NCBI GenBank assembly: GCA_964633995.1
Contig: CAZWKN010000004.1
Location: 1,260-65,259, forward strand
Direction: 5' to 3'
DNA from: an uncultured Gammaproteobacteria bacterium
GTDB taxonomy: Bacteria; Patescibacteriota; Microgenomatia; CAZETR01; Amesbacteraceae
Length of the DNA stretch: 64,000 nucleotides
How positions within the stretch are numbered: the stretch's first letter is position 1; each line of letters begins with the position of its first letter. The position numbers were made by a program, and so were the translations under genes. The notes under the pieces are model-generated. The model saw only the letters and a program-made list of their open reading frames with translations. It had not been told where the DNA came from and searched no databases. Shown piece after piece: positions 6,355-57,792 of this stretch.

Positions 6355-6428
6355 GGGCCCGTAGTTCACCTGGCTAGAACGCGTCATTTGCAATGACGAG
6401 GTAAGCGGTTCGAGTCCGCTCGGGTCCA
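6355..6428 (+). tRNA. tRNA-Ala (anticodon TGC)
   Basis: Acceptor GGGCCCG/CGGGTCC with a G3:U70 pair, anticodon loop tTTGCAa, T-loop TTCGAGT. Confidence 0.9.
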
Positions 6429-7020
6429 CTAAACCTAAAAGTTGGTCCCGACTTCCTCTTGTGGGGAGTCGAGATCAGCTTTGAGGCTGAATCTGGCGAA
6501 ATCCAGATGAGTAGCTCATTGAAAAGTGAAGAGAATTTAATAAGTAGTAGAGTCGTATTTTTTACTTCCGTAATGCAGACAATGGATGCCTAGGATGCTA
6601 GAGCCGAAGAAGGACGTACATAGCCACGAAAGTCGTCGGGGAGCTGCTAAGAAGCTTTGATCCGGCGGTATCCGAATGGGGAAACCCCTCCTATATGGAG
6701 AGTCCGCCGTAAGGCGAGATGGGGCACGTCCCGAACTGAAACATCTAAGTAGGGACAGGAAAAGAAATCACAGAGATTCCGTAAGTAAGCAGCGAGCGAA
6801 AGCGGAACAGCCTAAACCACGCCGCAAGGCGATGGGGTTGCGGGGTCCGCCGCAAGCAATTGATCGAGGATAGGAGAATCCCGTGGAAACGGGAACCAAA
6901 GCAGGTGATAGTCCTTTATCCGAAATCTAAGATCATGCTGGCGGATTCCCAAGTACCATGAGACACACGATCTTGTGGGAATCCGGGGTGACCACACTCC
7001 AAGGCTAAATACTTTAGCAT

Positions 7021-7061
<41 letters not shown>

Positions 7062-7751
7062 GGGTTAAAAACCTAGTGAAATAGAACCTGAAATTGTCTG
7101 CTGGCAAACAGTGAGAGCCCTGTCCCGCAAGGGGTGGGGTGATCGCGTGCCTATTGAAGAATTATCCGGCGAGTTTTCGATTGTTGCGAGTTTAAGCACG
7201 TCAAACGTGTGGAGGCGAAGCGAAAGCGAGTCTTAACAGGGCGCATAGCAGCAGTTGGAAGACCCGAAACCTGGTGAGCTAATCATGAGCAGGGTGAACC
7301 CCGATGAGAATCGGGGGGAGGCCCGAACTCGTTAGAGCTACAAATCTATGAGATGACTTGTGATTAGAGGTAATATGCCAATCGAACCAGGAGATAGCTG
7401 GCTCTCCCCGAAATATATATAGGTATAGCCCTAAAGCCAACTGATATGTGGTAGAGCACTGGATGCTTTCTGCAGCTTCACCGCTGTTGCGAGCAATCAA
7501 ACTCCGAATACGTATCAGAGTGCTTTGGGAGTCAGAACGACCCGGCTAAGCGGGCCGCTCTAAAGGGAAACAACCCAGACTGTCGTCTAAGGCCTCTAAA
7601 TAATGACTTAGTGTTGAACGCAGTTGAATTCCTCAGACAGCCAGGAGGTTGGCTCAGAAGCAGCCATCCTTTAAAGAAAGCGTAACAGCTCACTGGTCGA
7701 TTTGGGAGTTTGGCGCGGAAAATGAACCGAGGCTCAAGTCATTTGCCGAAG

Positions 7752-7848
7752 ACACAGATATTCGTGCTTCGCACAAAATTTATCATTTGTCATTTTACAT
7801 TTGATCATTCAATTGATGAAATGAAAAATGTTTAAATGGTTAATTTCG
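7752..7848 (+). other. AT-rich roughly 95-nt insertion in 23S helix 45 (IVS-like expansion)
   Basis: It replaces the short helix-45 tip (E. coli about 1170) between CCGAAG... and ...GGTAGGGGAGCGTT. At roughly 80% AT it contrasts with the flanking rRNA. Confidence 0.45.
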
Positions 7849-8596
7849 CGCGGAGCGCGGATGTGGTAGGGGAGCGTTGAAAGAGCTGTGAAGCATACGC
7901 CGTAAGGCGGTGTGGAGCGACTTCAAGTGAGAATGCCGGAATGAGTAGCGTTAACTCCGATGAGAATTCGGAGCGCCGAATACCCAAGGTTTCCTCCGCA
8001 ACATTTATTGTCGGAGGGTTAGTCGGCACCTAAGGTGAGGCCATAGTGGGCGTAACCGATGGACGAGCCGTTTAGATTCGGCTACATAAAATATATCGTT
8101 ATGAGCTAGGGACGGACTGAAAAGGAGTATCCAGGCGCATGCAGTGAATGTGGCGTCTAAGCAGTGAGATAGTGAACTTAGGAAAATCCGAGTTTGCGTT
8201 TTAAGTCGAGCTGTTATGGGAAGACTTGCGAGAAATTGTGAGACAACCTGGAGTGCTTCATTTTACGAGAAAATGTTCGTAGCCAGATGTATTTTATGCC
8301 GTACCGCAAACCGACACTGGTGGGTGGGTCGAGTAGACCAAGGCGTTCGGGAGAAGGTAGTTCAAGGAACTCGGCAAAAAAGCTGGACGTAATCTAGAGA
8401 GATGTCCTTCCCGCCTTTGGCGGGACGCAGCAAAAGCTTATTCCTCGACTGTTTAACTAAAACACAGGTCCATGCAAACTCGAAAGAGAAAGTATATGGG
8501 CTGAGGCCTGCCCAGTGCTCGTAAGTTAAGTGGATGGGTGTTAAAGCCCTGAAATGAAGCCCGAGTGAACGGCAGCAGTAACTATAACTGTTCTAT

Positions 8597-8638
<42 letters not shown>

Positions 8639-9148
8639 CGGCTTAACGAGGGAATAACTGTCTTGAACTATCACCCGGCGAAATTGAAATGGCTGTGAAG
8701 ATGCGGCCTAACTCTACTAGGACAAAAAGACCCTATGGAGCTTTACTGTACTCTGGCCCTGTTTCGGATTTTAAAATAGTTTAGTGTAGGAGGGAGCCTT
8801 CGGGCGACAATGAAACACCTCTCGTTTTGGAATCTCGAAACTAACCTATGCCGTCTGGAAACGACGGTGGAGACAAGGTCAGACGGGCAGTTTTACTGGG
8901 GAGGTATCCTGCTAAAGAGTAACGCAGGAGTGCCAAGGTGCTCTAAGCTCGGATGGAAATCGAGCTAGTCGTGTAACGGCATAAGAGCGCTTGACTGCGA
9001 GAGGGACACCTCGAGCAGGTGCGAAAGCAGGTCGTAGTGATCCTCGGATCCCTCGTGGGAGGGACCGGGCTTAACGGATAAAAGCTACCCTAGGGATAAC
9101 AGGCTGATCGCCGCCAAGAGTCCATATCGACGCGGCGGTTTGGCACCT

Positions 9149-9433
9149 TAACCAAATGGTATCGGGGTGTGTTGCCAGTAATGGCATTAGCAAGCTTTGT
9201 TATATGTATAATATTTTTTACTGACTCATATCGGAGAACTCCTTATAAAACGAACAATATAAGGAAAACCCCGAGGGAAGGCCGCCTATGGCGGCCCCCG
9301 TATCGACTTGTGGTTTCAAGACCACGGAGCCGTCTTTTTTAAGACGAGCTAAGACGTCAGCCCCTACTTTGGGTGAATTAACTTAAAGAGGGTGAAGGTA
9401 TAGTCAGCGCTTCGTGTAAACGAAGTCGACACG
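9149..9433 (+). ncRNA. candidate group I intron in 23S rRNA at the E. coli U2500-equivalent site
   Basis: The 285-nt insert exactly splits the conserved GGCACCU|CGAUGUCGG. The 5' exon ends in U and the insert ends in G. An internal guide GGGTG (9164-9168) can pair with exon CACCU with a U.G wobble at the splice site. No ORF is present. Confidence 0.5.
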
Positions 9434-9501
9434 CGATGTCGGCTCATCCTATCCTGGAGGGGCAGTACCTTCCAAGGGTCCGGCTGTTCGCCGGTTAAAA
9501 G

Positions 9502-9550
<49 letters not shown>

Positions 9551-9668
9551 AGTAGAATCGTGGAATTCTTGAGGGGGTCTGACCTCAGTACGAGAGGACC
9601 AGGTTGGAGGTATCACTGGTGTGCCGGTTGTGACGTCAGTTGCAGCGCCGGGTAGCTAAATACCTACG

Positions 9669-9701
<33 letters not shown>

Positions 9702-9902
9702 CTACCCAAGATTAGGAATTCATTCCGTCGCAAGATGGAAAAAGACCCGGGGAAGACTACCCCGTATAAGAGGCAGGCAGTGTAAGCACAGCAATGTGTT
9801 TAGCTTACCTGTACTAATCGGTCTAATGGAGTAAACTTACTAAACCCTATTACTTATTGTTCTCTTCACTTTTCAGTTAGTTACTTGCAAAGAGCGCAGA
9901 GT

Positions 9903-10022
9903 TCTTAGGTCATTTGAGCGGCGTGGAACTACCTTTTTCCATTCCGAACAGAGCCGTAAAACGCGCCAGCGCTGAAAATAGCTAGGGGGCAACTCCTCGT
10001 GAAGATAGGTCATGGCCTAAGA
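9903..10022 (+). rRNA. rrf: 5S ribosomal RNA
   Basis: Helix I is TCTTAGGTCAT/ATGGCCTAAGA and the conserved CCGAAC...GAAGATAGG loop motifs are present. It lies 44 nt after the 23S 3' end. Confidence 0.85.
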
Positions 10023-35375: not shown

Positions 35376-35379
35376 TCGG

Positions 35380-35452
35380 TGGACCCTAGGGGATTCGAAC
35401 CCCTTGCCTTCTCTATGCCATAGAGACGCTCTACCAAGTGAGCTAAGGGCCC
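35380..35452 (-). tRNA. tRNA-Ala (anticodon GGC)
   Basis: Reverse complement GGGCCCTTAGCTCACTTGGTAGAGCGTCTCTATGGCATAGAGAAGGCAAGGGGTTCGAATCCCCTAGGGTCCA. G3:U70 pair, loop aTGGCAt, canonical T-loop. Confidence 0.85.
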
Positions 35453-35800: not shown

Positions 35801-35926
35801 TGTCCTATAGTATACCAATATTTGGGGTTTTCGTCAAGTTTGGTGGACCATGGGGGAATCAGCTGCGGCCTGCACAGCAGCCCCGTATCCGCAATTTACC
35901 TACTATCTAATCTAGTGCGAATGTTG

Positions 35927-35997
35927 TGGACCCAGCCGGAATCGGACCGGCGACTGGTCGATGCGAACGACCTGGTATACCACTTGCCTATGGGCCC
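35927..35997 (-). tRNA. tRNA-Ala-like (anticodon CGC), possibly degenerate
   Basis: Reverse complement gggcccataggcaagtggtataccaggtcgttcgcatcgaccagtcgccggtccgattccggctgggtcca. G3:U70 pair and anticodon loop tTCGCAt. However, the T-loop is TCCGATT (C55) and the D-stem has a C.A mismatch. Confidence 0.5.
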
Positions 35998-55974: not shown

Positions 55975-56725
55975 CCTTTAAGGACAGTTCTTTCAAAGAT
56001 CGAGGGTGAGAGATGATATTTGGGAGAGGGAGGGTTCGTCGATTTGCGAGTTTTCGACAAAACTAGAGTAGGAATTGAATCCTGATTTGGCAAAATAAGA
56101 TAAAATTGCTTGTGGTTTGAGCCAATCTTGTTTGATAAAGCCGAGATAGTTTCGATAAGATGATGGTTGGGGACACTCTTGTAAGGACTGTCCTTTTTGG
56201 AAAGGATTGAGGTGAATATAGCGAGATAGGTGGAGCAGTTGTTGTTCTGAATCTACAAGGACCGCCTTGTAAGCATCCTGAAAAAGTGGTCCTACTCTGT
56301 GGTTGTTTCTATGGTTAAAATACTGGACGTAGCGGGTGCAAAGAGAGCGCATAAACATTTCTATAGTTCTGGGAACGGTTTGTTTGACTAAAAGATGGAA
56401 ATGATTGGGCATTAGGCAATAGGCTAGTAAATCGAGTTGATTGGAAAAATTGTTGAGTCGAATTAGTTTTTTGGCATCTGCCTTTTGATAGGGAGTAGAT
56501 GTGGGGTTGGTTAATACCTGAAGGAGTTTGTCTAAGTCTTTGGGGGAAAGATATTCTTTGAGATATGAGAGGAAAACGGACTCATCCTGTTTGTCTGAAA
56601 AAATTGCTCGCTTTTCGACACCGCGGTTGTAGATGTGGTAGTAGCCGTTTTCGTGATACTCTTTGATCTTGTTCTTGGCGGGCACAAATTTAGGATACTC
56701 TTGAAAGGACTGTCCTTTCAAGAGT
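55975..56725 (-). mobile_element. putative IS200/IS605-like element (HUH transposase gene bounded by palindromic hairpins)
   Basis: GAAAGGACTGTCCTTTC perfect palindrome at 56703-56719, just upstream of the gene. A related palindrome lies at 56183-56196 and a degenerate copy (AAGGACAGTTCTTT) at 55981-55994, just past the stop. Overall size about 750 bp. Confidence 0.45.
55993..56685 (-). CDS. IS200-like HUH (Y1) transposase-family protein, paralog B
   Basis: YYHIYNRGV, HUH as PNHFHLL, YKAV, and IHLNP. Start proposed at GTG 56683-56685, equivalent to MPAK of paralog A. The annotated 368-aa ORF has a 140-aa low-complexity N-terminus overlapping the neighbouring gene. Confidence 0.6.
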   Translation of the reverse strand: MPAKNKIKEYHENGYYHIYNRGVEKRAIFSDKQDESVFLSYLKEYLSPKDLDKLLQVLTNPTSTPYQKADAKKLIRLNNFSNQLDLLAYCLMPNHFHLLVKQTVPRTIEMFMRSLCTRYVQYFNHRNNHRVGPLFQDAYKAVLVDSEQQLLHLSRYIHLNPFQKGQSLQECPQPSSYRNYLGFIKQDWLKPQAILSYFAKSGFNSYSSFVENSQIDEPSLSQISSLTLDL

Positions 56726-56742
56726 TGGAATTGTGATAGAAT

Positions 56743-57792
56743 TTGGGGATGGCGAGTGATTTGGGGCAGAAGGCAAAGAAAACGTTGGAAGCGTTTGTGC
56801 CGGAGATAGATAAGCGAATTGCTGAGTATTTTGACGAAGAAATAAAAAAAGATTTCGGGTTTAATGAGAAACAGAAAAAGTTGGATAGGGAGATTTTGGA
56901 ACACGCAAAAGAATACATTCTGCGTCCGACGAAGAGAATCAGAAGTTCGTTTGTGCGTTATGGAGCAAGGTTGGGTGGAGAAGAATGTGATTGGGGTGCT
57001 GCTGTGGGGGTGGAGTTGGTACATGCAGGGCTTTTGATGCATGACGATTTTATGGATAACGATAGTTTTAGGCGGGGAGGGTTGACAACCCATGAACATT
57101 TTAAAAAAGTAATGAATGATTCACACCTGGGGGATGCTATGGCGGTTACGGTGGGAGATGCAATGTTGTTTATGGGCTTAGAGCTTATTTCTAATAGCGA
57201 CAACAGACCGGCAATGAAACAGATGTTGAGAGGGTTGGCAAATACTGGTTATGGCCAGGCTTACGATGTTGGTTTGGAAGCACTTAAGGAATGGACAGAA
57301 GACGATGTGATCGTTTTGCACAAGGCAAAGACGGCGATTTATACGTATGAGAATCCGTTGTTTATTGGGGCGCATTTGGCCGGTTTATCAAAAGAGGTTT
57401 TTGAAATTTTGCATGAATATTCTATGGATGGTGGGGTGGCATTTCAGTTGCAAGATGATATTTTGGGAGTGTATGGGAGTCCAGAGAAGACGGGAAAGAG
57501 TGCAGATTCGGATCTAAAACAGGGAAAATGTACCCTGATGGTGCTTAAGGCGTGGGATTGTCCAGAAGTGCATAAAGTTTGGGGTGATCAAAATGCAACG
57601 AGAGAGGATCTGGATGCGGCTAAAAAAGCCATATTGGACTGCGGGGCGTATGAATATAATAAAAAATTGGCCAGAGAGTATGCGGCAAAAGCGGCTAGGA
57701 CGGCAGAGAAATTGCGTAAATTTGAGTTAAATTCAGAAGCGATTGATTTCATCCAGGGTATTGCTGAGTATATGGTGGAGAGAGAAGTATAA
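56743..57792 (+). CDS. trans-polyprenyl diphosphate synthase (FPP/GGPP synthase family)
   Basis: First Asp-rich motif LLMHDDFMDNDSFRRG and second motif LQDDILG. Confidence 0.85.
   Translation: MGMASDLGQKAKKTLEAFVPEIDKRIAEYFDEEIKKDFGFNEKQKKLDREILEHAKEYILRPTKRIRSSFVRYGARLGGEECDWGAAVGVELVHAGLLMHDDFMDNDSFRRGGLTTHEHFKKVMNDSHLGDAMAVTVGDAMLFMGLELISNSDNRPAMKQMLRGLANTGYGQAYDVGLEALKEWTEDDVIVLHKAKTAIYTYENPLFIGAHLAGLSKEVFEILHEYSMDGGVAFQLQDDILGVYGSPEKTGKSADSDLKQGKCTLMVLKAWDCPEVHKVWGDQNATREDLDAAKKAILDCGAYEYNKKLAREYAAKAARTAEKLRKFELNSEAIDFIQGIAEYMVEREV

Follow-up and report, generated by a model that had tools for sequence, protein, structure and literature searches.

The 23S rRNA gene in the 64,000-nucleotide stretch of DNA analysed here (positions 1-64000, referred to as the window) is interrupted by a 285-nucleotide (nt) insert, which is very probably, with a confidence of roughly 0.9, a compact, ORF-less, spliced group I intron. 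The initial annotation had proposed a group I intron at this place, and this proposal is supported by a full P1-P10 fold, including the P3/P7 pseudoknot, with compensatory changes across 31 inserts that occupy the same site. The insert separates the residues equivalent to U2500 and C2501 of the peptidyl-transferase centre and belongs to a family, here termed L2500 after its site, some longer members of which code for LAGLIDADG_2 endonucleases.

Position and boundaries of the insert

The interrupted gene is matched over its full length by the bacterial large subunit model of Rfam (LSU_rRNA_bacteria, RF02541; 2303 bits, model positions 1-2925), and a 5S rRNA gene lies downstream of it at 9905-10021. 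Read directly, the sequence of the upstream exon runs as ...GGUUUGGCACCU up to 9148, the insert begins with UAACC and ends with GACACG, and the downstream exon resumes as CGAUGUCGGCUC from 9434. A local scan with Rfam shows the LSU model halting at model position 2522 and restarting at 2527, flanking the insert exactly, and the pairwise alignment with the 23S rRNA of Escherichia coli contains one 285-nt insertion here, immediately after the U of GGCACCU. Coordinates in the E. coli copy aligned here, 2907 nt in length, are offset by +3 at the insertion site, as they also are at the sarcin-ricin landmark A2660, and hence the site is U2500/C2501 in the conventional numbering. The sequence itself, the break in the Rfam alignment and the E. 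coli alignment thus all bear out the original claim of a 285-nt insert at the U2500 equivalent. Equally correct was the description of an exon that ends in U (U9148, equivalent to U2500) and an insert that ends in G: the conserved exons leave no latitude for the boundary, which cannot be moved in either direction without altering universally conserved mature 23S sequence. Removal of the insert would restore the sequence GGCACCU-CGAUGUCGG of the peptidyl-transferase centre.

The 5' part of the insert carries a 13-nt internal guide sequence, which is a continuous complement of the ligated exon junction and the sole such site on both strands of the 64 kb, where 0.2 would be expected from shuffled sequences. 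One part of it forms P1 with the end of the 5' exon (GCACCU/GGGUGU), including the wobble pair U9148.G9165, and the other forms P10 with the start of the 3' exon (Table 1). The pairing of an intron GGGTG with the exon CACCU and the presence of a U.G pair at the splice site had been predicted in the initial annotation, and both hold; however, the motif had been placed at intron nucleotides 16-20, whereas it occupies nucleotides 17-21 (9165-9169), and P1 is in reality 6 bp long.

Several other features of the same gene and of its surroundings were recorded in the course of this analysis. At 7758-7863 (after E. coli ~1166-1187, helix 45) two inserts of 16 and 69 nt (85 nt in total) lengthen helix 45 to a long AU-rich hairpin, and the surrounding 131-nt stretch at 7745-7875 folds at -48.9 kcal/mol with a z-score of -6.7. 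Helix 45 is the classic site of intervening sequences processed by RNase III, and the mature 23S rRNA may therefore be fragmented at this point. A further insertion of 34 nt relative to E. coli, at 6832-6865 (after E. coli ~287), folds with no unusual stability (z-score -0.55) and probably reflects a variable helix that has expanded in the usual way. The genes for tRNA-Ile(GAU) (521-593) and tRNA-Ala(UGC) (6355-6429), which are normally adjacent to each other in the 16S-23S spacer, are about 5.7 kb apart here, with a MacA/MacB-like efflux operon and a TrmB-like regulator, and no 16S rRNA gene was found in the 64-kb window. Besides the tRNA-Ala(UGC) gene upstream of the 23S rRNA gene, there are tRNA-Ala genes with GGC and CGC anticodons (35378-35452 and 35926-35997, minus strand), which are separated by about 470 nt. 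The plus strand of the window is strongly biased in composition (G 29.0%, C 15.4%; GC skew ~0.31); this skew remains between +0.27 and +0.30 even where blocks of genuine minus-strand genes (MurA, MurB and Mur ligases) lie, and falls to ~0.1 nowhere but in the rRNA and the 60.9-64 kb segment. On the minus strand, a 368-aa ORF (55993-57099) matches Y1_Tnp, the Pfam domain of IS200-like Y1 transposases (E 3.8e-10).

Fold and covariation of the intron core

A search with the Rfam group I model (Intron_gpI, RF00028), which had been proposed as a check on the insert, recovers it from end to end (model positions 1-253; E 5.3e-5 in a 381-nt search), but with 26.8 bits, which is below the gathering score of 50; in keeping with this score, Intron_gpI is missing from the gathering-mode Rfam results for the window. 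In the resulting alignment P7.1 and P7.2 appear as an insertion at the junction of P7 and P3, and the segment GAAGGUAUAGUC, which spans J8/7 and P7, aligns to the Rfam consensus gAAGAUAUAGUC with a posterior probability of '*'. When eight relatives of the insert were compared with the same model only one of them (L196, 50.5 bits) reached the gathering score and seven stayed below it, which suggests that the single Rfam group I model is insensitive to the L2500 family. The group I reading had been regarded as falling if a sub-threshold score coincided with a core in which P3 and P7 could not be folded. As the complete P3-P9 core can be built, with the P3/P7 pseudoknot included, the latter point decisively fails and the group I reading stands.

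Relatives were sought in metagenome contigs by means of a pattern combining the exon end with the guide sequence, which matched at least 120 loci, and metagenome and genome contigs together furnish at least 63 complete inserts of 275-911 nt at the same site with the same guide sequence. A looser pattern used on genome contigs (TTTGGCACCTD N5-35 GGGTG) mostly gave chance matches, the only real 23S inserts among the 120 loci listed being L012 (Ca. Uhrbacteria) and L096. A sequence-only nhmmer profile built from 28 members of the family, with the window and its two closest relatives (L123 and L156, see below) left out, recovered a single match in the 64 kb, which covers 9160-9422 of the window (E 7.4e-14, 128 kb searched).

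To measure covariation, 31 ORF-less members were aligned with MAFFT and the core helices of the window were projected onto the alignment, P7 being treated as a pseudoknot. The 43 core pairs are 96.9% paired over the 31 sequences, as against 35-41% when their partners are slid by 1-3 columns, a control that keeps the relatedness of the sequences. Double-sided changes are present in 28 of these 43 pairs, and none of 500 shuffles, which ignore phylogeny, matches any of the observed measures. P3 switches from UCGGC/GCCGA in the main family to CUGAC/GUCAG in the lineage comprising the window, L123 and L156, and the first pair of P4 is U-A in this lineage versus A-U in the main family. P4 as a whole is 97.8% paired, with one A.C mismatch (9235/9270) that is present in the window and in L156, while the base of P5 is 100% paired with two covarying pairs. 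The closing pair of P7 likewise covaries (A-U in 27, U-A in three and G-C in one of the 31 sequences), and the loops L2 and L9 are of the GNRA type throughout the family. In the three-member lineage taken by itself 75 pairs, with those of P1 and P10 included, are 98.2% paired, and 15 pairs, mostly in P2, P5, P7.2, P8 and P9, have changed on both sides.

The minimum free energy (MFE) fold of the insert is multi-branched (z-score -5.2) and yields P2, P3, P4, P5, P6, P7.1, P7.2, P8 and P9, the P7 pseudoknot being of a kind that thermodynamic folding cannot predict. Between the tentative P2.1 and the 5' strand of P3 there is an AU-rich stretch that extends up to 9220. The architecture is assigned to the subgroup IA type solely by the placement of the two extra hairpins P7.1 and P7.2, which follow the 5' strand of P7 and precede the 3' strand of P3. 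The pair G9305-C9405 of P7 sits at the position of the guanosine-binding pair, presumably the counterpart of G264-C311 in the Tetrahymena intron, and might by this analogy bind the guanosine cofactor. The longest ORF of the insert (9149-9433) measures 53 aa, and there is no Pfam match, in agreement with the earlier statement that no homing endonuclease is encoded in it.

Table 1. Coordinates of the interrupted 23S rRNA gene and of the elements of the probable group I intron in the window
Feature	Position	Strand	Evidence and remarks
Bacterial 23S rRNA gene that hosts the intron	6560-9838	+	Rfam RF02541
P1, 5' exon strand GCACCU	9143-9148	+	U9148 = U2500, the 5' splice-site U of the wobble; pairs in all three members of the lineage
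Probable group I intron, 285 nt, no ORF	9149-9433	+	Full-length match to RF00028, family profile match, covariation, MFE z-score -5.2
Internal guide sequence, 13 nt	9158-9170	+	GGUAUCG (9158-9164) with the 3' exon = P10; GGGUGU (9165-9170) with the 5' exon = P1
P2 hairpin UGCCA-GUAA-UGGCA, GNRA loop	9173-9186	+	5 of 5 pairs covary; 99.4% of cells paired (31 sequences)
Tentative P2.1 hairpin UAGCAA-GCU-UUGUUA	9188-9202	+	Invariant in the three-member lineage, so no covariation signal is possible
P3, 5' strand CUGAC	9221-9225	+	Pairs with 9356-9360; 4 of 5 pairs double-changed relative to the main family; 96.8% of cells paired
P4-P5 domain	9231-9274	+	P4 9231-9236/9269-9274; J4/5 AA 9237-9238; P5 9240-9247/9258-9265; both helices in the MFE fold
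P6/P6a GGG-AA-GGCCGCC-UAU-GGCGGCC-CCC	9275-9299	+	97.8% paired; 3 double-changed pairs; in the MFE fold
P7, 5' strand	9303-9308	+	U9303, bulged C9304, GACU 9305-9308; GACU/AGUC invariant in 31 of 31
P7.1 hairpin GUGGU-UUCAAG-ACCAC	9310-9325	+	Extra to the Rfam consensus, inserted after P7 and before P3'; in the MFE fold; invariant in the lineage
P7.2 hairpin AGCCGUCUU-UUUU-AAGACGAGCU	9328-9350	+	5 of 9 pairs double-changed in the three-member lineage; basal pairs covary family-wide
P3, 3' strand GUCAG	9356-9360	+	Partner of 9221-9225
P8 hairpin CCCU-A-CUUU, 14-nt loop, AAAG-AGGG	9362-9392	+	Basal 4 pairs 96.8% paired, 3 of them covary; in the MFE fold
J8/7 UGAAGGUAU (9393-9401) and P7, 3' strand AGUCA (9402-9406)	9393-9406	+	Near-invariant across the family
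P9 hairpin CUUCGU-GUAA-ACGAAG, GNRA loop	9410-9425	+	6 of 6 pairs covary; 90.9% of cells paired
omegaG, terminal guanosine at the 3' splice site	9433	+	Boundary fixed by the conserved exon
P10, 3' exon strand CGAUGUC, from C2501 onward	9434-9440	+	Complements GGUAUCG 9158-9164

Host, relatives and endonuclease genes of the family

The best named homologues of the RadA protein encoded in the window come from Ca. Amesbacteria, the Microgenomates group and Patescibacteria (67-75% identity), and the host is accordingly a Microgenomates-like bacterium of the CPR. The closest introns among the relatives collected are those of L123 (74% identity) and L156 (66%). The exons of these two loci are 92% identical to those of the window, as against 70-80% for the other hosts, which indicates that the three hosts are related to each other and that divergence has been quicker in the intron than in the rRNA around it.

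Relatives with lengths of 734-911 nt possess ORFs of about 190-208 aa, intact or decayed, that match the LAGLIDADG_2 domain (E 1e-44, 3e-41). In the intact relatives these ORFs begin at intron nucleotides 82-135, which is upstream of the P3-P9 core, and the region of entry would correspond to the AU-rich/P2.1 stretch of the window. Loci with LAGLIDADG_2 ORFs shortened to 77-159 aa (L133, L140, L178, L191, L209, L217 and L227) are found alongside others with inserts of 450-860 nt that have no ORF of at least 60 aa (L138, L142, L150, L166, L168 and L240). The shortened and missing ORFs look like snapshots of the decay of the endonuclease gene within one intron family, and the ORF-less intron of the window fits the usual cycle of gain and loss of such genes. 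The family is spread by LAGLIDADG_2 homing endonucleases; the copy in the window has lost such a gene and is apparently inherited vertically in its host lineage.

A separate observation concerns the 3' end of these elements. Natural group I introns that lack omegaG are rare. In this family, 33 of the 63 complete L2500 inserts end in A, typically with GUA directly before the exon sequence CGAUGUCGG, and their boundaries cannot be shifted (e.g. L129:826-1120, L164:124-448 and, on the minus strand, L096:7433-7826); the intron of the window itself ends in G. The A-ending and G-ending relatives share the same guide for P1 and P10 and the same invariant G-C pair in P7, and a search of the alignment for a core position that separates the omegaA from the omegaG relatives found none. 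A 23S intron of Coxiella is a precedent for the lack of omegaG, to go by a title cited in PMC11270868, and the omegaA half of the L2500 family may merit a study of its own.

The nearest known counterparts are the 23S introns of the CPR. According to the survey by Tsurumaki et al. 2024 (PMC11270868), 433 of 968 CPR 23S inserts are group I introns that cluster around the peptidyl-transferase centre, and LAGLIDADG-encoding and ORF-less versions share a site and have highly similar cores; Brown et al. 2015, as cited there, also deals with CPR 23S group I introns. The intron of the window shares with these the host phylum, the region of the 23S rRNA (matched as a region and not by a numbered 23IS site), the coexistence of LAGLIDADG-encoding and ORF-less forms with similar cores and the weak detection by RF00028. 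No substantive difference separates them; the survey left the exact splice boundaries undefined. Further, IA introns that reside in patescibacterial tRNA genes undergo self-splicing in vitro (PMC13011429). The site itself is also occupied in plastids: rrl_2500 is a recognised group I site of streptophyte chloroplast genomes and green algae (PMC4877394), which agrees with the description of the peptidyl-transferase neighbourhood as a classic landing zone in the initial annotation. The likeness to these chloroplast introns consists of the site (in E. coli numbering), the class and the gene, whereas the host compartment differs.

In terms of architecture, the cyanobacterial L2593 introns and the Twort ribozyme, compared here by their description (PMC1995217), resemble the intron of the window in a short P2 and in the presence of P7.1 and P7.2 between P7 and P3, an extension that in Twort braces the guanosine pocket. 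The L2593 introns likewise have LAGLIDADG partners; unlike the intron of the window, they carry a full endonuclease gene and lie at a different site, while the Twort intron resides in a host gene other than rRNA. Coxiella burnetii Cbu.L1917 and Cbu.L1951 and the L1931 introns of Thermotoga, Simkania and cyanobacteria are again group I introns of 23S domains IV/V, but at sites that differ from the present one (PMC1995217 and PMC11270868). In 2007 the bacterial 23S intron sites listed outside the CPR were L1917, L1931, L1951 and L2593, with L2500 not being among them (PMC1995217). Thus, the intron of the window belongs to a large family of CPR rRNA introns that has already been described, and the L2500 site itself is not new to group I introns.

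Proposed splicing, alternatives and implications

The anatomy of the intron, taken together with the established chemistry of group I introns, allows a splicing pathway to be proposed. The guide segment GGGUGU would pair with GCACCU to form P1 and so offer the U9148.G9165 wobble to a catalytic core built from the P4-P6 and P3-P9 domains, the guanosine pocket being probably braced by P7.1/P7.2, as it is in the Twort intron (PMC1995217). A free guanosine held at G9305-C9405 of P7 would then attack the 5' splice site, after which G9433 would take its place in the pocket while GGUAUCG holds CGAUGUC in P10. Finally, the 3'-OH of U2500 would attack the 3' splice site, ligating the exons and restoring the uninterrupted centre. 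The RNA would by this pathway catalyse its own removal, presumably independently of proteins, and the insert would be missing from the mature rRNA.

Improbable by comparison is a group I-derived element that does not self-splice, and which either depends on a host factor or a maturase or is retained in the mature 23S rRNA. Such an element would accord with the lack of an encoded endonuclease or maturase, the A.C mismatch in P4 and the sub-threshold Rfam score, and the L1931 intron of Simkania negevensis is reported to be unspliced (reference 28, as cited in PMC11270868). Yet the core helices, the guide, omegaG and J8/7 are all intact, and compensatory constraint is apparent even within the three-member lineage, where a loss of function should have meant degradation. 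Moreover, U2500 and C2501 are part of the single-stranded central loop of the peptidyl-transferase centre, and 285 nt retained at this point would be hard to square with function; the CPR survey reports that the rRNA inserts are absent from transcripts, from which they have been removed (PMC11270868). An expansion segment retained in the mature rRNA was likewise considered and rejected, as it fits poorly with the compensated helices and with the site in domain V.

Intervening sequences of the RNase III type, which are excised without religation and leave the 23S rRNA in fragments, are common in bacterial 23S genes, and the gene studied here has a long hairpin resembling one at the helix 45 site. 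That the present insert is another of them is nevertheless highly improbable: its ends form no extended terminal stem, its MFE fold is multi-branched, and the family of its homologues has a group I core that covaries, while the guide for P1 and P10 would have no role in an intervening sequence. The sites known for such sequences are helices 25 and 45 and not the central loop of domain V (PMC11270868). The missing terminal stem and the covarying catalytic core together rule this reading out. Since the window probably derives from a metagenome-assembled genome, an assembly chimera might also be considered, as might an insert in a dead rRNA pseudogene; we give these next to no credence. The LSU model matches the 23S rRNA gene along its whole length with 2303 bits, a 5S rRNA gene lies next to it and a tRNA-Ala gene upstream, and the clean and unique boundaries of the insert restore the universal sequence. 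The same insert, with 66-74% identity, occupies the same site in two independent contigs of related hosts, and such diverged copies rule out an assembly artefact.

For the spliced group I intron favoured here, a further idea may be entertained, although it is unlikely to be correct. Rather than being a decaying parasite, the ORF-less intron could be a vertically kept, quasi-domesticated element, whose obligatory guanosine-dependent splicing at U2500/C2501 might make completion of the peptidyl-transferase centre subject to a checkpoint linked to the supply of nucleotides or to the order of ribosome assembly in these bacteria with reduced genomes. This idea stems from the 92% identity of the exons versus the 66-74% identity of the introns in the three Microgenomates hosts, in which every helix is compensated.

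With the window, a catalogue of hundreds gains a further ORF-less member, and the alignment of the family provides exact splice boundaries and a covariation-tested structure for its L2500 members. A model specific to the L2500 family would improve annotation, given that just one of the eight relatives scored passes the curated threshold of Rfam. More generally, the annotation of rRNA in Patescibacteria must allow for introns inside the peptidyl-transferase centre.
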